Of a DNA stretch of 14,195 bases, positions 527 to 14,195 are shown in pieces. Below the pieces are notes generated by a model. It worked only from the letters and a program-made list of their open reading frames with translations, was not told the origin of the DNA and ran no database searches. The position numbers and the translations under genes are program-made. The DNA is from Candidatus Heimdallarchaeota archaeon (GTDB lineage Archaea > Asgardarchaeota > Heimdallarchaeia > Heimdallarchaeales > Heimdallarchaeaceae): assembly GCA_016839945.1 (NCBI GenBank), contig JAEOTE010000156.1, forward strand, positions 1-14,195, read 5' to 3'. Position 1 is the stretch's first letter, and the number at the start of each line of letters is the position of its first letter.

Positions 527-1531
527 TTACTTTCTCTTTTTTTCTATTTCCATCTTAACATCTGAACTAAGTTTTTTCCAGTATTGATAGTATCCATTCC
601 TATTCAGTAACTCTTTGTAAAATGTAATAGAAATTTTATCGTTCTCAAAAGCAGTGTAAAATTCTTCTTTTATTGGAGACCTATCAAATCGTATTTTCCT
701 TTGAGCTTCTAAGAGTATTGGTTCTTGATTTCTCATCATACTGAAAGTTTTCAGTTTTTTTCCTAGATTCTCTTTCAAAACTTCCTCCCATTTTAAACTT
801 CGCAAAAAGTGATGATCTATGTAAACCTCCTTTGCACAATCAACCACTCTTCCAAGATATTCAAAAGACTTAGCAAACTCATTTTTAATTTTGGAAAGAT
901 AAAAAGGAAAACCATCCAAAGCAACTAGATCAGGGGAATTCTCTTCAATAAATTCTGTTGCTATATTAGAAGAAGGTCCACAAACATCAGATGTGTAGAT
1001 GTATTGGAAATCATCTTCCTCAATCATCGTTTCAAGAACGTATCCTCTTGCTCCTTCTGAGCCATGAGGAACAGGAGGTGAGAAAACTATTTTAGTTGAA
1101 CCTATTTCGTAAGTAGAATTATCAGCTTTTGAAAGTTTGAGCTTTTTATTTTTCCATAGCCATTTAGCTCTTTGTTGTTGACTATAATTGAGAAATTTAT
1201 CAGGATCTTTAGCTAGTATTGTAACTTCAGGACTGTATATTGAATTAAAGACATCTCTGTTAGTAAACTCATATTTTCTTTCAACTCCCAAAGTAAAGTG
1301 ATCTCCATGATAATGAGACTGGATTATAATATCTACTAACTCAGCAAATTCAAGAATGATTTTTCTGGATAACCAAGAAGCTGCGATTTCGATAGGAAGT
1401 GGTCGTAAACCGAATCTTGTTGGACCTAACGAAACACTAGGATCAATTAAGATGTTTACACTTCGAGTCATTACTAAATGTGCAAAAGACCGAGTGCCTA
1501 AAGATTCGCAGGATATTGGAAAAATCTTCAT
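527..1531 (-). CDS. UPF0282-family metallo-beta-lactamase-fold hydrolase
   Basis: N-terminus ESLGTRS...ILIDPSVSLGPTRFGL is typical of archaeal UPF0282. MBL motifs SHYHGDH (HxHxDH), PVPHG, TSDVCGP and IDHHFLRS are present. Confidence 0.85.
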   Translation of the reverse strand: MKIFPISCESLGTRSFAHLVMTRSVNILIDPSVSLGPTRFGLRPLPIEIAASWLSRKIILEFAELVDIIIQSHYHGDHFTLGVERKYEFTNRDVFNSIYSPEVTILAKDPDKFLNYSQQQRAKWLWKNKKLKLSKADNSTYEIGSTKIVFSPPVPHGSEGARGYVLETMIEEDDFQYIYTSDVCGPSSNIATEFIEENSPDLVALDGFPFYLSKIKNEFAKSFEYLGRVVDCAKEVYIDHHFLRSLKWEEVLKENLGKKLKTFSMMRNQEPILLEAQRKIRFDRSPIKEEFYTAFENDKISITFYKELLNRNGYYQYWKKLSSDVKMEIEKKRK

Positions 1532-1658
1532 TTATGTATTAATTAAACAATCCTATAAAAATAATTAGTGAAGTTAATGTAAAAATTCAAATTTATTGGT
1601 TTCAAGTAACTTACTAGTTAATTTTTTATACTGTTAATAGTTTCATTATTTGAGAAGC

Positions 1659-3131
1659 ATGAGTAATGAAATCATGGAAAATCCTGTTTTTGCAAGTAAA
1701 TACGTTTCTAAATTTACTCATTATGATGAAATAAATGATGTACTTACTGAAAACCTTCAATTTGAAGAACAAGAATCAATTGAGATTCTGCTTCTTCCTA
1801 TTATTGATCAAGTTCCTGAAAACAAGAAAGGAATTGTACGTACATTCATTAAAAATAAAAGTCATAACACTTTAACTTTATACATCTATTATAATCTAAC
1901 AGGATGGTTTAGTGATTTACCTAAAAATGAAAATCTGAGATTTCTTGAATCTTTCACAATTGGTCCTTCTGAAATATGGTTTAGAGATATAGAATTCAAG
2001 AGCATGATAAAGCAAGGAAAGAACTATCTACAAATTGTAGCAACACAAGAAAAATCAAAAAAACCCAAAGAGTTTGTATCATCTCATATTGAGTATACTC
2101 AAACAAGAGAGATAGTAGAAAGTATTCAGATCGAGAGAAGTAATTATATGGGAATGATTTCAAGAGCTTACATAAATCCTAGATCTCTCAAATACTGGAT
2201 TTTTTATTCTATATTTGGTAAAAATGTATATAGAAAAGAAAATATCTTCATCTTCCTATTAAAACGGTTACTTCTATTAGCTGGTATTACTTTCTTCACT
2301 CTATACTTTGTGCTTCCAATGATTTTTGGACTTGGATTTGTTCTTCCATTGAGTATCATAGCTATTGTTATTTCAATCTCATCTTTCATCTTAGATAGAG
2401 ATAGTAAGAAACTTGTAATCATTCATGAATTGGGATTATCTGAAAGTGATAAAAAAGCTAGCCTAAAATTAGTAAAGGAGACTTACGGAGGATTCTTACA
2501 GAAATTCTGTGCTAATGATATAAATTTTGATTATGATTTAGAAAATGATGTTGTTCATTGGAAGGAAGGAGCTAATAGGTTATATGAAAAAATCATTCCT
2601 ATTATTAGTAGATTAATCCATATTCCAGTAAATATAAAACCTCCAATCAAAGTTAGACCATCTCGAGTTGAAGTCTTTGAAGATAGAGAACAATTGAAAG
2701 AAAAAATTGAACGAGGAATCGAATTACAACATGAGGAAGGAATACGTTTTAGAGATGAGATTAAAGGAGTAGCAAAAGACATTGATGGAGTTGAAATGTC
2801 CATAGATGTTGTTGAATCAGATACACAAATAGAACCTGAATATATAGGAATAAAAACTGACCCAAAAATTGACACAAAAATTGATCCTATCATTTCCAAA
2901 ACTTCTGTTGAACCAGAGATTAAGAAAATCGAATCAAAATCTGCAGTAGAGCCTAAAATTGAAACTATAGAGTCAAAAACAACCGTTACACCAGAAATTG
3001 AACCTGTTAAAACTGAAACTGAAGGTTTAATCTCTGGAGAAAGAGAAAAACCTAGAAAAAGAAAATCTATTGATTTCGAAGCAATCCCAGAACCTAGGAA
3101 ACTTCCTAAGGATGATGAAGAAGAGAAATAA
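1659..3131 (+). CDS. Hypothetical membrane protein with two central TM helices and an acidic, repetitive C-terminal region
   Basis: Long ORF; ATG 1659 preferred over TTG 1650. Hydrophobic hairpin LLLLAGITFFTLYFVLPMIFGLGFVLPLSIIAIVISISSFIL; E/K/P-rich tail. Confidence 0.8.
   Translation: MSNEIMENPVFASKYVSKFTHYDEINDVLTENLQFEEQESIEILLLPIIDQVPENKKGIVRTFIKNKSHNTLTLYIYYNLTGWFSDLPKNENLRFLESFTIGPSEIWFRDIEFKSMIKQGKNYLQIVATQEKSKKPKEFVSSHIEYTQTREIVESIQIERSNYMGMISRAYINPRSLKYWIFYSIFGKNVYRKENIFIFLLKRLLLLAGITFFTLYFVLPMIFGLGFVLPLSIIAIVISISSFILDRDSKKLVIIHELGLSESDKKASLKLVKETYGGFLQKFCANDINFDYDLENDVVHWKEGANRLYEKIIPIISRLIHIPVNIKPPIKVRPSRVEVFEDREQLKEKIERGIELQHEEGIRFRDEIKGVAKDIDGVEMSIDVVESDTQIEPEYIGIKTDPKIDTKIDPIISKTSVEPEIKKIESKSAVEPKIETIESKTTVTPEIEPVKTETEGLISGEREKPRKRKSIDFEAIPEPRKLPKDDEEEK
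2895..3011 (+). repeat. Three degenerate 13-aa (39-bp) coding repeats
   Basis: SKTSVEPEIKKIE / SKSAVEPKIETIE / SKTTVTPEIEPVK within the 1659..3131 protein. Confidence 0.65.
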
Positions 3132-3207
3132 AAGCTACTGAAAAAAATTCACATATAACAAGCATGCAAAATAAAATAAATGCTTATTATTTCCTATACA
3201 AAATAAG

Positions 3208-3981
3208 GTGATTAAAATCGAAACTAGTAAGTATCCCATAAAATTTAGGGAAACAGAAAATTTTAGCTTCTTACCATTAAAAATAGCTTGTATAGGAATT
3301 TTAGCTTACTACATCTTAGAAATGTTGAATAGAGTAATTTTCTTTACAACAGATATAGAATTAGATGAGATGGCAGTAACTTGGAGAATTGTCGATTCTG
3401 TAATATACGCTATAACGTTTATAATAATTGCAATTCAGACAGCTGTATGGAGAGAAAAATTACATGCTTATGAGAATAGAAAAAAAGCAAGGAATGCATT
3501 CTTTACATTAATACTCACTGCTTTATTTACAGCTATGTATGAAATTCTAGTACTTGAAATGGATAAGCTTCAACCATCTCATCGAAGTGATTTAACTGTA
3601 CCATTTCTTTTCATGATTGTACTTCATTATTATAGTATAAGTCAAGTTAGACAGATTATCACTAGAATTGGCAGAACAAAAAAAGCTGAAACTGGAAGAT
3701 CAATATTCTATACATTTTTCGCATTAAATCCATGTATACGTTATTTACTTCCTTTCCTTTTAATGGTTTTAACTTCTGTTGGAGGGGATTTATATTTCGT
3801 TTATATGTTTTATTCTGACTTGATTATGACTTATCTAAGCGCTGCAGTTGCTGTAGGTTTCACTGTAATGATTTTTCTTGACAGTAGAAAAATCAGAAGA
3901 GCTCAATTAATGGAAACAATGAGAACAGAGATAGATAAACAATTAGCACAAGAAACTCTACCTGAAGATCAAGTTTTTTGA
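3208..3981 (+). CDS. Hypothetical polytopic membrane protein (about 6 TM)
   Basis: 257-aa ORF with about six hydrophobic segments. GTG start; an internal start is possible. Confidence 0.75.
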   Translation: MIKIETSKYPIKFRETENFSFLPLKIACIGILAYYILEMLNRVIFFTTDIELDEMAVTWRIVDSVIYAITFIIIAIQTAVWREKLHAYENRKKARNAFFTLILTALFTAMYEILVLEMDKLQPSHRSDLTVPFLFMIVLHYYSISQVRQIITRIGRTKKAETGRSIFYTFFALNPCIRYLLPFLLMVLTSVGGDLYFVYMFYSDLIMTYLSAAVAVGFTVMIFLDSRKIRRAQLMETMRTEIDKQLAQETLPEDQVF

Positions 3982-8499: not shown

Positions 8500-9066
8500 G
8501 TGAGCCAGAGAATATTCAAAATCACCTTGTTGGGTGAAGGTGCAGTTGGCAAAACTTCTATAAGAAGAACATATCTAGGGGAAAGTTTCAAGGAGGGGTA
8601 TATGATGACAATTGGAGCTGATTTTGCGGTTCAAAAAATGACACATAATAATACCGAATATACTTTGCAAATTTGGGATTTAGCTGGTCAACAAAGATTT
8701 TCCGCAGTTCGTGAGGTCTACTATCGAGGAACTGCTGGAGCATTATTAGTCTTTGATGTTTCACGACCTGAAACTTATGAGATTCTTCCTAATTGGTTGC
8801 ATGAATTAATTCGTAATAATAAGAACCGCATTGTTCCTATTGTACTTATTGGAAACAAAGCTGATCTTCGTGATTCTACACCTTATTCCGTTCCTATCAA
8901 TTATGCTCAAGAGTATGCTGATCAACTTTCTGAATGGTCAGGATTTTATGTTCCATACATTGAGACTTCTGCTAAAACTGGATTAAATGTAGAAAAAGTA
9001 TTTCAAGTTCTTACTGAGAATATTTCTTCGTATTTTGAAAGAATGCTTATTGAAGAATATAAATAG
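8500..9066 (+). CDS. Rab-like small GTPase (Asgard eukaryotic-signature type)
   Basis: G1 GEGAVGKT, G2 TIGADF, G3 WDLAGQ, G4 NKAD, G5 ETSAK. RabF-like motifs IGADF, TLQIW, RFSAV, YYRG, LVFDVS. No C-terminal cysteines. Confidence 0.95.
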   Translation: MSQRIFKITLLGEGAVGKTSIRRTYLGESFKEGYMMTIGADFAVQKMTHNNTEYTLQIWDLAGQQRFSAVREVYYRGTAGALLVFDVSRPETYEILPNWLHELIRNNKNRIVPIVLIGNKADLRDSTPYSVPINYAQEYADQLSEWSGFYVPYIETSAKTGLNVEKVFQVLTENISSYFERMLIEEYK

Positions 9067-12566: not shown

Positions 12567-12582
12567 AGATTCTTAAGAATCT
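12567..12582. promoter_or_regulatory. Perfect 16-bp palindrome, candidate operator
   Basis: AGATTCTTAAGAATCT. Confidence 0.45.
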
Positions 12583-12665
12583 TACCGACATAAAAAATTG
12601 ATCCAAGAAAAAAGTGAAATTTTCACCGCTTGTAGCTTAAGTTTTTAGGAGTTTCAAGAGGTAAA

Positions 12666-12710
12666 TGTTACAATTTTCCAGATTTTCTCTTCTGGTGGAA
12701 AAAAGTAACA
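12666..12710. promoter_or_regulatory. Long inverted repeat abutting the BRE/TATA of the peptide gene, candidate operator
   Basis: TGTTAC-aa-TTTTCCA (12666-12680), N15, TGGAAAA-aa-GTAACA (12696-12710); 13 of 15 positions complementary. Confidence 0.5.
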
Positions 12711-12713
12711 ATA

Positions 12714-12763
12714 TTTAAATAGAAGATGAAAAAGTGTAATCTTGAGCTTTATTGGCTGGTGGA
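12714..12763 (+). promoter_or_regulatory. TATA box (TTTAAATA 12714-12721), predicted TSS about 12744, and SD (GGTGGA 12758-12763) of the repeat-peptide gene
   Basis: Canonical archaeal spacing; the SD lies 8 nt before ATG 12772. Confidence 0.6.
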
Positions 12764-12771
12764 TAATAGAA

Positions 12772-13002
12772 ATGAAAAGTAAAACTAAGAAATTACTTGG
12801 CGTATTATTTGTAGTATCATTTATTGGAATAACAGCAAGTGTGATCGCTTGTGCAGGTCCAACAGGTGGATATCCTGATGAACCCTTAGGTCATACTGCA
12901 GGTCCAACAGGTGGATATCCTGATGAACCCTTAGGTCATACTGCAGGTCCAGACGGGGGATATCCAGACGAACCGATTAGTCATACTCGAATATATGTAT
13001 AA
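12772..13002 (+). CDS. 76-aa secreted precursor peptide with three tandem 15-aa cores
   Basis: MKSKTKKLLGVLFVVSFIGITASVIAC + AGPTGGYPDEPLGHT x2 + AGPDGGYPDEPISHT + RIYV. Good SD and TATA. Copy 3 carries four synonymous codon changes, which supports coding status. Confidence 0.85.
   Translation: MKSKTKKLLGVLFVVSFIGITASVIACAGPTGGYPDEPLGHTAGPTGGYPDEPLGHTAGPDGGYPDEPISHTRIYV
12852..12986 (+). repeat. 3 x 45-bp tandem repeat (coding)
   Basis: 12852-12896 and 12897-12941 are identical; 12942-12986 is diverged. Confidence 0.97.
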
Positions 13003-13045
13003 TGTGTAAAAAAATTCATGCTGACGTGAAATAATCGCCAGAAAA

Positions 13046-13400
13046 ACCCCACCCCTTTCCTCGGCGAGAGAAGGAAACCTGGGGCGTCTTAGAGAGGTCA
13101 TAGACGCCCATTAGGTTTTCATAAGGGGTGATATCCACAAGCAAATAGAACTCAAGCAAGGGGTAAAAAACGGGTCAAACCGAAAAAAAACTTTCGAGGT
13201 CTATAACTGAGAGAAATCCTACGAAGGCAGAAATCCTTGGGGATTTTTCATAGAGATCTTGTACAGAGTTCGCTACGTTGAATCTACGTGCAGGTTCTCC
13301 TGATCGAATTCTGTACGCTTGATCTCTTTGTCAGTTTATCTATCTTGACCCTACAATCTATCTATCCACCAACCAACCATAGAAATATGGGGGTCAAAAA
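13046..13400 (+). ncRNA. Large structured non-coding RNA / cis-regulatory leader of unrecognised family
   Basis: At least 10 nested helices found by eye, e.g. 13050-57/13123-30, 13073-81/13112-20, 13082-89/13102-09, 13172-78/13345-51, 13205-10/13331-36, 13252-58/13321-27, 13261-72/13305-16. G-U pairs work only on the + strand. Visibly GC-richer than other intergenic DNA here. Confidence 0.7.
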
Positions 13401-13401
13401 A

Positions 13402-14195
13402 ATGGAAAAACTTGAAAACATGACAAATTCAGACAAAAGAATACTGCAAATCTTGCAGAATTATCCACTAGAACCTTTTTCTTCAATGGCAAAGAGAGTG
13501 GAAATTTCTCCACAAACAATGATTCGAAGAGTAGAGAATCTAAAGAGTCGCAATATACTTCGCAATGCTATAGCCTCTTTCGTCCCTGAACGTATTGGTC
13601 TTACTAGATTTAGCGTTATTTTTGATATTTCTCAACTCCACCAGTTTACGCTTTTACAAAACGCTATTTCTGAACACAATTACATACGTGCATACAATCG
13701 ATTTTATGGCGAAAAGTTTGGCATACAAGCAAATTTCGATGTCCCAATGAATGTAAATGGAGTATTCACAAAATTCTTAGATTACTTAGTAAACGAAGAA
13801 TTCTGTGATGGTTATACCATATTCAAATCTAAAGGTCATCGTTTTTCTAAGCCAGCACCTATAACTATCTACAGTCAAGATCCAGAACCTTTTGATATCA
13901 TTTCATTCTGGCAAAAAAGAGTTAAAGCCAATTCTGAATTAAATGGTGTTAGAAGCGCTGTGACTGTTAAAAACGGAGAAATCATTATTGTGACTGATGA
14001 AGGAGAAAAACCCATTGAACCTTTACATCTAAGACTACTTCGAGATCTAACACGAGAAACTGCAAATGGACATAGGATTGGAATTCGCACACAACAAACA
14101 GAGCTAATTAATAACTACAGAGATCTGTATAAAAGCTTAGGTAAGAAAATAAGACTTACACCTTCAGAAGAGCACTTATTCAACAACCTTAGCGA
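13402..14195 (+). CDS. Lrp/AsnC-family winged-helix transcriptional regulator, probably tandem-domain (partial, more than 264 aa)
   Basis: Hand translation is open to the window end: MEKLENMTNSDKRILQILQNYPLEPFSSMAKRVEISPQTMIRRVENLKSRNILRNAIASFVPERIGL (Lrp HTH + linker), a RAM-like domain, then a second helix-1-like segment PIEPLHLRLLRDL. SD GGGGGT at 13389-13394. Alternative in-frame ATG at 13387. Confidence 0.88.
   Translation, partial: MEKLENMTNSDKRILQILQNYPLEPFSSMAKRVEISPQTMIRRVENLKSRNILRNAIASFVPERIGLTRFSVIFDISQLHQFTLLQNAISEHNYIRAYNRFYGEKFGIQANFDVPMNVNGVFTKFLDYLVNEEFCDGYTIFKSKGHRFSKPAPITIYSQDPEPFDIISFWQKRVKANSELNGVRSAVTVKNGEIIIVTDEGEKPIEPLHLRLLRDLTRETANGHRIGIRTQQTELINNYRDLYKSLGKKIRLTPSEEHLFNNLS

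Follow-up and report, generated by a model that had tools for sequence, protein, structure and literature searches.

Archaeal regulators of the Lrp/AsnC (FFRP) type, for example Ss-LrpB and FL11/PH1519, bind palindromes at their own promoters. Messenger RNAs of the hok type are inhibited by folding back on themselves through long-range pairing between their 5′ and 3′ parts, and the cyanobactins are examples of multi-core precursors of peptides that are made on the ribosome and modified after translation (RiPPs). A functional interaction between the 5′ and 3′ untranslated regions (UTRs) has been described in haloarchaea (PMC2636863), and the Kex2-processed repeat proteins and alpha-factor of fungi are multi-copy peptide precursors (PMC7329392). 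The locus described here lies at the end of contig JAEOTE010000156.1 of Candidatus Heimdallarchaeota archaeon, where a gene for a repeat peptide with a signal sequence, a structured RNA and a gene for a tandem Lrp/AsnC-type regulator follow each other. The window analysed is the entire contig of 14,195 nucleotides (nt), which belongs to an assembly of 3.0 Mb in 186 contigs. We rate the cassette as a variation on known kinds of regulation with a new RNA family in it. Our preferred reading, to which we give a probability of about 0.55, is that it represents a genus-restricted two-gene operon which is most likely autoregulated and whose intercistronic RNA would act in cis on the translation or stability of both genes.

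On the + strand an AT-rich stretch free of open reading frames (ORFs) is followed by an ORF of 76 amino acids (aa), a GC-enriched spacer of 399 nt and an ORF with an AsnC-type helix-turn-helix (HTH). The general order of the cassette, as observed across genomes, is a promoter with an inverted repeat, a leader, the repeat-peptide gene, 330-400 nt of structured RNA and a tandem Lrp/AsnC gene of 446-479 aa. An earlier note, written from the sequence alone, had placed here a palindrome-rich promoter, a secreted precursor with three peptide cores, about 350 nt of nested helices complementary to the Shine-Dalgarno (SD) regions of both genes and an Lrp/AsnC gene, and had guessed the host to be an Asgard archaeon. 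When the window sequence was re-analysed, all of these elements were found where the note had put them, and the guess about the host was correct as the orthologous loci belong to Candidatus Heimdallarchaeota.

Conservation of the cassette and its intercistronic RNA

A BLAST search with the 400-nt spacer retrieved DNA of 70-75% identity exclusively from genomes of the same genus, and each match was located directly upstream of an ortholog of the regulator (ortholog proteins 51-69% identical). We also built a covariance model of the first RNA domain, termed R1. The model was built on a hand-drawn structure, since RNAalifold could not resolve the variable helices from plain MAFFT alignments, and it scores 115.8 bits against the window (E 2.6e-26). 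R1 was found to match 18 of the 25 genomes of the genus, once per genome, with E values from 1e-25 to 1e-38 and always immediately before the gene for the regulator ortholog. It matched no genome among 22 (two of them closed) from 12 other genera of the order, and among 150 genomes sampled across the phylum only two marginal matches were observed outside the genus (E 0.003 and 0.005). Judged by these searches, the cassette is restricted to one genus of uncultured Heimdallarchaeota.

Upstream DNA is sufficient at 13 loci, and every one of them has the repeat-peptide ORF, located 346-399 nt ahead of the regulator gene. Four further loci are cut by a contig break within the repeats or shortly before them, and at least two of these retain the 3′ end of the repeat ORF. 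Contigs that start within or just after this gene were noticed in four genomes (G013:C147, G014:C138, G019:C274 and G018:C48), and in the G017 ortholog the repeats are interrupted by a run of N. Short-read assemblies evidently break at the tandem repeats, and copy numbers taken from metagenome-assembled genomes may therefore be underestimates. The 18 genomes fall into about four clades, with labels that include W, A, B and C. The idea of a module would fall if homologs of the regulator never adjoined such a peptide and RNA; the orthologs were observed always to adjoin both. The three parts form a conserved module, and the recurrence of their arrangement in 18 genomes is beyond chance.

The region between the genes (13003-13401) has a GC content of 41-47%, compared with 15-35% in the flanks, and its + strand folds with z = -4.55 relative to dinucleotide shuffles (minus strand, -2.9). 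Blocks that are invariant in the 18 sequences are AATCGCCAGAAA, CCCCACCCC(C)TTTCCTC, GGCGA, AGGTC, GGGGTCAAACC and TT(A/C)GAGGTC. The invariance extends to would-be wobble positions, and one block of about 30 nt does not vary at all, whereas the identity of the flanking proteins is only 51-69% (about 55%). In domain 1 the P4-P5 arm forms the same two-tier hairpin in 18 of 18 species when each is folded alone. Its stems vary, for example GGGCGUCU/AGACGCCC, GGGUCU/AGACCC, GGGGGG/CCCCCC and GACGUC/GACGUC, while the loop is always (G)AGGUC(A/G). In a model-guided alignment, 81% of the cells of domain 1 are paired and the covariation score is 0.217, compared with 0.137 ± 0.011 for shuffled alignments (0 of 500) and at most 0.139 when the partners are slid. 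Helix 5 has compensatory changes in six of its six pairs. Domain 2 differs in sequence between clades, and its z-scores range from -3.9 to -8.0 in 18 of 18 species (mean -5.3). The structured RNA that had been proposed is thus borne out by its fold and by the identical arm in 18 species, and the search for a covarying RNA upstream of regulator homologs, which had been suggested as a check, gave covariation above that of shuffles.

It might be argued that this region has no function as RNA and is either a decaying coding sequence, such as a relic of the beta-domain of the partner protein discussed below, or a set of palindromes that act at the DNA level. The paralog operons do have coding sequence at the corresponding place, and TTGTACAA palindromes occur two or three times in clades W, A and B. 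However, no protein similarity to the partner family is left (best tblastn E 0.32), the invariant blocks span would-be wobble positions, and no reading frame or start codon is conserved among orthologs, for which reason coding sequence in the RNA region was rejected. Moreover, the stems change their sequence yet keep their pairing, which is unlike DNA-binding sites. This explanation is regarded as largely refuted and as highly improbable.

Two small ORFs in the region were also dismissed. Clades A and B (e.g. L012, L016 and L026) have an upstream ORF beginning with MGSL at about 150 nt from the regulator start; we judged it non-coding. Its ATG lies 5-8 nt after the third GAGGTC motif, it is absent in the window, in G023 and in clade C, and it is conserved only in its first residues. 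A minus-strand ORF at 13016-13159 runs through the covarying arm. Among known RNAs, Rfam 15 gave no match at the gathering threshold, the best sub-threshold match in the RNA region being TtnuHACA16 with 18.6 bits against a threshold of 100. A search for transfer RNAs and transfer-messenger RNAs found none, and signal recognition particle RNA and RNase P RNA were excluded as identities because both are located on other contigs of the genome. We regard the spacer as a new structured RNA family.

Promoter, long-range pairing and proposed regulation in cis

In all 13 orthologs with upstream DNA, TGTTACnnTTTTCCA and TGGAAAAnnGTAACA are separated by N13-15 and followed within 3-4 nt by the TATA box TTTAAATA and then by a conserved leader. 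The paired arms of this putative operator occur nowhere else in the 3.0-Mb genome, and each arm is asymmetric, consisting of GTAACA and TGGAAAA. The promoter had been called palindrome-rich, which holds for this conserved palindrome with 15-bp arms but not for a perfect palindrome at 12567-82, which is not conserved. A half-site, TTTCCA/TGGAAA, is common to the focal operator and to the promoters of paralogous operons, where TTTCCA is followed by about 18 nt spanning the TATA box and then by TGGAAA. The common half-site fits homologous regulators that act on their own operons. Transcription is predicted to start near 12744, given the usual archaeal distance between TATA box and start.

In the alignment of the ortholog spacers, no conserved TATA-like element was found between the stop codon of the peptide gene and the start of the regulator gene. 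Furthermore, none of the 18 spacers was found to contain a hairpin-plus-T terminator or six or more consecutive T, as had been remarked earlier for the window with regard to oligo-T terminators. The lack of an internal TATA box together with the lack of a terminator favours one transcript.

The leader of the peptide gene is complementary to a segment of domain 1, site A, over 25 nt with 84% matching (12741-12765 against 13132-13156), and this is the top inverted repeat of the region. The best duplex between leader and RNA was found at the homologous position in 12 of 13 orthologs, with energies of -22 to -30 kcal/mol. This position is formed by the 3′ strand of hairpin P6 together with the GAACUCAA block, just 5′ of GGGGUCAAACC. 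We noticed that leader and site A co-vary between clades, as seen in the combinations CUCGAAU/AUUCGA, UUCAAUUU/AAAACUGAA and CUCAAUUU/AAAUUGA. A column test on the two segments counted 73 double-change sequence pairs against 28 ± 14 (4/1000). When all leaders were paired with all RNAs, the mean duplex energy was -24.7 kcal/mol for cognate, -24.0 for same-clade and -18.7 for other-clade combinations, and 0 of 20000 permutations reached the observed value. The complementarity between RNA and leader is therefore conserved through compensatory change. The 5′ strand of P6 resembles an SD sequence (GGUGG or CUGG), so the anti-leader also has a local alternative partner.

A second complementarity concerns the regulator gene. 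An anti-SD located 40-70 nt upstream of this gene covaries with its SD, the pairs being UUGACCC/GGGUCAA in the window, UUGAUCUCU/AGAGGUCAA in clade B and GUUCCU/AGGAAC in clade A, and it is also part of the 3′ strand of the domain-2 hairpin. Complementarity to the SD regions of both genes, as the earlier note had claimed, was thus observed. The same note had proposed a switch with three partners of GGGTCAA and TTGACCC; the SD/anti-SD pair is conserved but the third partner fits some clades only and misfits clade A. A bulge-helix-bulge processing motif in the duplex between leader and anti-leader was considered and rejected as its internal loops do not fit.

These features suggest how the cassette could work as an operon with an RNA acting in cis. 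A single promoter, made up of the TTTAAATA box and the unique inverted-repeat operator, would drive one transcript with a leader of about 28 nt, the secreted repeat peptide, 330-400 nt of RNA and the tandem (HTH-RAM)x2 Lrp/AsnC gene, and the regulator would bind the operator at the DNA level. The anti-leader would pair with the peptide gene's entire 5′ leader and its SD, whereby translation may be blocked or the 5′ end protected, and in the alternative state it would be held locally in hairpin P6 of domain 1. Likewise, the second anti-SD would either pair with the SD of the regulator gene or be held in the long domain-2 hairpin. A factor or ligand that selects one state or the other is probably bound by domain 1 at its invariant core.

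Whether such a partner could be a metabolite or ion, freeing or hiding anti-leader and anti-SD, bears on a special case of the cis-acting RNA in which domain 1 is the aptamer of a riboswitch. About 50 invariant nucleotides are single-stranded or at junctions and are framed by covarying helices in a multi-stem junction. The anti-leader and the regulator anti-SD, whose pairings are predicted, would provide platforms for hiding SD sequences as in cis-regulatory RNAs, and these platforms adjoin domain 1. A riboswitch class is as a rule found at many genes and in many lineages, whereas this RNA occurs once per genome in one genus only, shows no likeness to any Rfam riboswitch and is flanked by genes that give no hint of a metabolic ligand. 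This special case is therefore considered very unlikely.

The anti-leader complementarity would be equally effective in trans, and the RNA could then be a free-standing small RNA, either with its own promoter or cut from the 3′ UTR, that represses the peptide mRNA by antisense pairing with the leader. Domain 1 is compact and conserved, as is a ATCACGCTG block just past the stop codon, and an A/T-rich stretch precedes the invariant core. However, no conserved TATA box or TFB recognition element is found between stop codon and core, no terminator follows the RNA, and the distance to the regulator gene is fixed. In addition, the 3′ anti-SD covaries with the SD of the downstream gene, which is sensible only if both are on one molecule. 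A separate small RNA is thus judged to be improbable.

Several observations weigh against the operon with a cis-acting RNA as we propose it. The thermodynamic z-scores of domain 1 are modest (mean -1.6), helices 1-3 rest mainly on invariant or one-sided variation, and the alignment used for counting pairs was fitted to the model structure. Independent lineages are few (18 genomes in about four clades), so the permutation counts overstate independence. An internal promoter is conceivable, as in clades A and B the regulator start is preceded at 40-50 nt by A-rich stretches. Co-transcription and the transcription start are predictions, and adjacency and the common half-site are all that links the regulator to the operator. 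The features of the cassette in the window are collected in Table 1.

Table 1. Coordinates of the cassette features in the window
Feature	Position	Strand	Remarks
Putative operator	12666-12710	+	inverted repeat TGTTACnnTTTTCCA - 15 nt - TGGAAAAnnGTAACA, 15-bp arms, ending 3 nt before the TATA box
TATA box TTTAAATA	12714-12721	+	conserved column block in orthologs
5′ leader of the peptide gene	12741-12771	+	SD GGTGGA at 12758-12763; invariant block AGCTGGTGGA
Peptide gene, 76 aa	12772-13002	+	MKSKTKK, hydrophobic signal/anchor, 3 x GPTGGYPDEPLGHTA
RNA domain 1	13032-13203	+	invariant block AATCGCCAGAAA..CCCCACCCC..TTTCCTC..GGCGA at 13033-13067
Two-tier arm P4-P5 (domain 1)	13073-13120	+	loop carries GAGAGGTCA at 13092-13100
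Anti-leader, site A	13132-13156	+	complementary to peptide leader and SD
Domain 1 blocks after P4-P5	13172-81; 13193-13201	+	blocks GGGTCAAACC and TTCGAGGTC, respectively
RNA domain 2	13204-13344	+	long imperfect hairpin, core stem ~13252-13328
Local anti-SD TTGACCC for the regulator	13345-13351	+	pairs with GGGTCAA 13391-97
Anti-leader, site B	13363-13376	+	seen in this window only, where it gives the best duplex; position not conserved in orthologs
Tandem Lrp/AsnC-type regulator, first 264 aa	13402-14195	+	HTH_AsnC match; gene continues beyond contig end

The tandem regulator and the repeat peptide

The regulator was found to match PF13404 at residues 7-48 (E 1.4e-7, 31.6 bits against a cut-off of 27), and its orthologs match too. 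In the orthologs, which are 446-479 aa long, Pfam and NCBIfam recognise the N-terminal HTH only, and the Pfam RAM model has no match in the regulator. An AlphaFold (AF2) model with a predicted local distance difference test (pLDDT) score of 62 contains an HTH and a RAM-like unit at residues 64-147 and a second RAM-like unit at 306-375, both units with the order beta-alpha-beta-beta-alpha-beta; the second HTH or helical region is of low confidence. Foldseek retrieved PH0061, AsnC and Lrp (E 3e-7 to 1e-4) and aligned the fused two-unit protein NirDL (PDB 4ch7) over about 430 columns, and a sequence profile matches PH0061 over residues 1-134. The tandem Lrp/AsnC fold assigned earlier is supported by the PF13404 match, the Foldseek results and the PH0061 profile. 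Among 1.84 billion, 254 cluster representatives match at E <= 1e-3, which makes the family a rare one. A siroheme decarboxylase (AhbA/B, NirDL) was ruled out, as NF040708 scores 27 bits against a cut-off of 140 and no haem genes occur among the neighbours. As a putative Lrp/AsnC-family protein, the regulator may bind palindromic DNA and answer to an amino-acid-like ligand; the conserved inverted repeat at its own promoter is indirect evidence for this.

In the peptide a hydrophobic stretch of 19 residues comes after the basic N-terminus and precedes three 15-aa units, for which Tandem Repeats Finder reports three 45-nt copies at 12852-12987. The precursor is thus of the kind described in the earlier note. 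A lipobox-like VIAC, which had been read as the sign of a lipoprotein, is not conserved in the orthologs. These are 62-142 aa long and consist of MKxKK, a hydrophobic stretch and 2-7 tandem units of 15-20 aa with a core of the DEPIG type, the pattern of which is (G/D)P-x2-4-(D/T)xP(I/L/V)(G/Q). The repeats are nearly identical within species and different between species. A database search with the peptide returned only three relatives among 5.8 billion proteins.

The origin of the peptide is suggested by paralogs of the regulator. These proteins (30-35% identical, 401-415 aa) each follow a co-directional signal-peptide ORF of 152 aa that ends 37-42 nt upstream, and the gene for a signal-peptide protein ends 37-55 nt before the regulator gene in each of the paralog operons. 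For more distant paralogs the preceding proteins, secreted or anchored, measure 170 and 289 aa. Paralog loci of this kind were seen in genomes of the same genus (L064-L073, L027 and L028), with a DxDxDG-like motif in the partner. The 152-aa partner is confidently modelled as a beta-sandwich (pLDDT 86) with weak matches to carbohydrate-binding-like domains. It belongs to no Pfam family, and relatives were found only among unnamed Heimdallarchaeota proteins. Its conserved C-terminal tail reads FDPP(E/G)GDPDYP(P/I)GGG(V/L)xPGP, and every repeat of the focal peptide aligns to this tail; for example, DPTGGFPDEPIGG and DPPGGDPDYPIGG are identical at 10 of 13 positions (E 1e-3). The N-terminal parts of the two proteins align too. 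On this evidence the focal peptide looks like a derivative of the partner with an amplified tail and no domain. It is best seen as having arisen from a secreted beta-sandwich protein whose folded domain was lost and whose tail motif was multiplied. Since a secreted partner is always paired with the tandem-Lrp paralogs, a regulator with a co-transcribed secreted-protein gene would be the ground state of the cassette.

This history also bears on whether the peptide is a signal. In such a scheme, put forward in the earlier note, the exported precursor would be cut into peptides of 15-20 aa. Cells would sense these, either straight away or once re-imported, by means of the RAM-like domains of the tandem Lrp protein, which would then act on the operator; the RNA would only tune the circuit, which makes the scheme compatible with regulation of the operon in cis. 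The loss of the globular domain and the multiplication of the tail motif suggest that activity resides in the motif itself. Precursors carry between 2 and 7 copies of the unit, the copies are near-identical within species and differ between them, and the peptide gene is paired in a conserved manner with a regulator of a ligand-binding family. In clades W, A and B a small-x-Ser/Ala motif, recognised by eye, directly precedes the first repeat, and signal-peptidase cleavage at this motif would leave a mature product of repeats only; in clade C about 25-30 residues lie between signal sequence and repeats, which limits this argument.

The tail motif is nearly the same in the paralogous pairs while their regulators are only 30-35% identical, which argues against specific pairs of signal and receptor, as these are expected to diverge together. 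The paralog partners are folded beta-sandwich proteins of 125 aa, unlike pheromones, and the neighbourhood has no conserved gene for a processing protease, an exporter or an oligopeptide importer. RAM domains have amino acids and small metabolites as ligands, and we know of no peptide described in this role. A complex prediction with regulator residues 55-430 and two repeat units gave scores of 0.00 and 0.02, which is evidence neither way. On balance, peptide signalling of this kind is considered unlikely. The stronger form, in which multi-copy secreted peptides serve as cell-to-cell signals read by the tandem Lrp/AsnC receptor and the RNA of about 350 nt gates both genes through their ribosome-binding sites, is held to be distinctly unlikely.

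Genomic neighbourhood and comparison with known systems

The regulator gene is cut by the contig end and its remainder was located on contig C92 of the same assembly. The end of C92 differs from the last 540 nt of the window (13656-14195) by 19 mismatches (96.5% identity), so that the assembly seems to contain two strain variants or the locus was split through strain heterogeneity. On C92 the genes of the locus go on in the order expected, and a closely related contig from the Joint Genome Institute has identical synteny with a regulator gene of 471 aa. Downstream of the regulator are three conserved genes without a Pfam family (C92, reverse strand 1140-3378; L032:7483-9922). Two of them encode membrane proteins, one of about 205 aa with two predicted transmembrane segments and one of about 373 aa that has six hydrophobic segments and is soluble in its C-terminal domain; the product of the third has about 120 aa and appears winged-HTH-like by eye.

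Upstream of the peptide gene and on the same strand, a serine hydrolase of the beta-lactamase family is often found (L032:681-1853; 8 of 11 loci compared), though not in this window. It has a signal peptide and a C-terminal membrane anchor and could be an extracellular peptidase. In one genome a 235-aa protein with a RING-finger domain is encoded 3.5 kb upstream of the cassette (L032:1850-2557, minus strand). The same protein has a sub-threshold AgrB-like match (E 3.7e-4, 20.3 bits against a cut-off of 23), and its family occurs in only three of the compared loci. Elsewhere in the window, at 8500-9066 (+), lies a gene for a small GTPase of the Ras/Arf family (PF00071, E 1.3e-45), a typical 'eukaryotic signature' gene of the Asgard archaea.

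We found no paper that describes this cassette, and no described family matches it. With no Rfam family either, the module appears to be undescribed, as the earlier note had supposed. Gene regulation and non-coding RNA are poorly known in Asgard archaea, the closest prokaryotic relatives of eukaryotes. The cassette offers an RNA of about 350 nt that is well defined, covaries clearly and has a proposed mechanism that can be tested, in which long-range pairing with the leader is combined with an anti-SD for the downstream gene. It also offers a rare tandem Lrp family with a fixed secreted-protein partner and a visible evolutionary path from a folded secreted protein to a pure multi-copy peptide precursor. 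The reach of these results is limited as the element is confined to one genus of uncultured organisms. If the peptide were a signal, this would, to our knowledge and in the literature searched, be the first peptide communication system described in this archaeal group, and its quorum-sensing circuit would be built from parts unlike those of any bacterial or phage system.

Among such systems, RRNPP (Rap-Phr) and arbitrium (AimR-AimP-AimX) loci resemble the cassette in that the gene for a small secreted pro-peptide stands beside that for a cytoplasmic DNA-binding regulator, with a non-coding RNA in the locus; a secreted pro-peptide gene was found beside the putative receptor gene in 13 of 13 assessable loci. 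The resemblance does not extend to the receptor, in which neither Pfam nor NCBIfam detects the TPR domain that is the hallmark of RRNPP and arbitrium receptors, the fold being Lrp-like. The gene order also differs, as the RNA here lies between the genes and pairs with the peptide leader, and there is no evidence here of peptide maturation or import.

Like other multi-copy precursors, including the multi-core RiPPs, the peptide has a signal sequence followed by 2-7 near-identical short units in one precursor, with a copy number that depends on the species. It differs from them in having no dibasic or otherwise recognisable cleavage sites between the units and in that its unit derives from the tail of a folded protein. 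No RiPP maturation enzyme (radical SAM, YcaO, cyclase or protease) was found among the conserved neighbours, which are membrane proteins of unknown function, a small protein that is winged-HTH-like by eye and has no Pfam match, Ldh_2 and the beta-lactamase-family hydrolase.

The regulator shares with Lrp/AsnC proteins an N-terminal AsnC-type HTH, a RAM-like alpha/beta domain and a conserved inverted repeat by the TATA box of its own operon, and with NirDL the presence of two HTH-RAM units in one chain. In contrast to the former it is a tandem protein of 446-479 aa from a rare family, its putative operator has asymmetric arms and its gene always follows a secreted-protein gene; in contrast to NirDL it has no haem-pathway context.

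The RNA is closest to the hok-type mRNAs and to the UTR interaction of haloarchaea, since the entire 5′ leader with its ribosome-binding site has its complement in a segment downstream of the ORF. The cassette has no evident antisense RNA gene, and fold-back pairing is all that it has in common with a type I toxin-antitoxin system such as hok, the product here being a signal-peptide protein of acidic, Pro/Gly-rich repeats and not a small membrane toxin. The cassette is further set apart from fold-back mRNAs by the surroundings of the pairing segment, which is part of a large, conserved multi-helix RNA that also serves as the spacer to a second gene.

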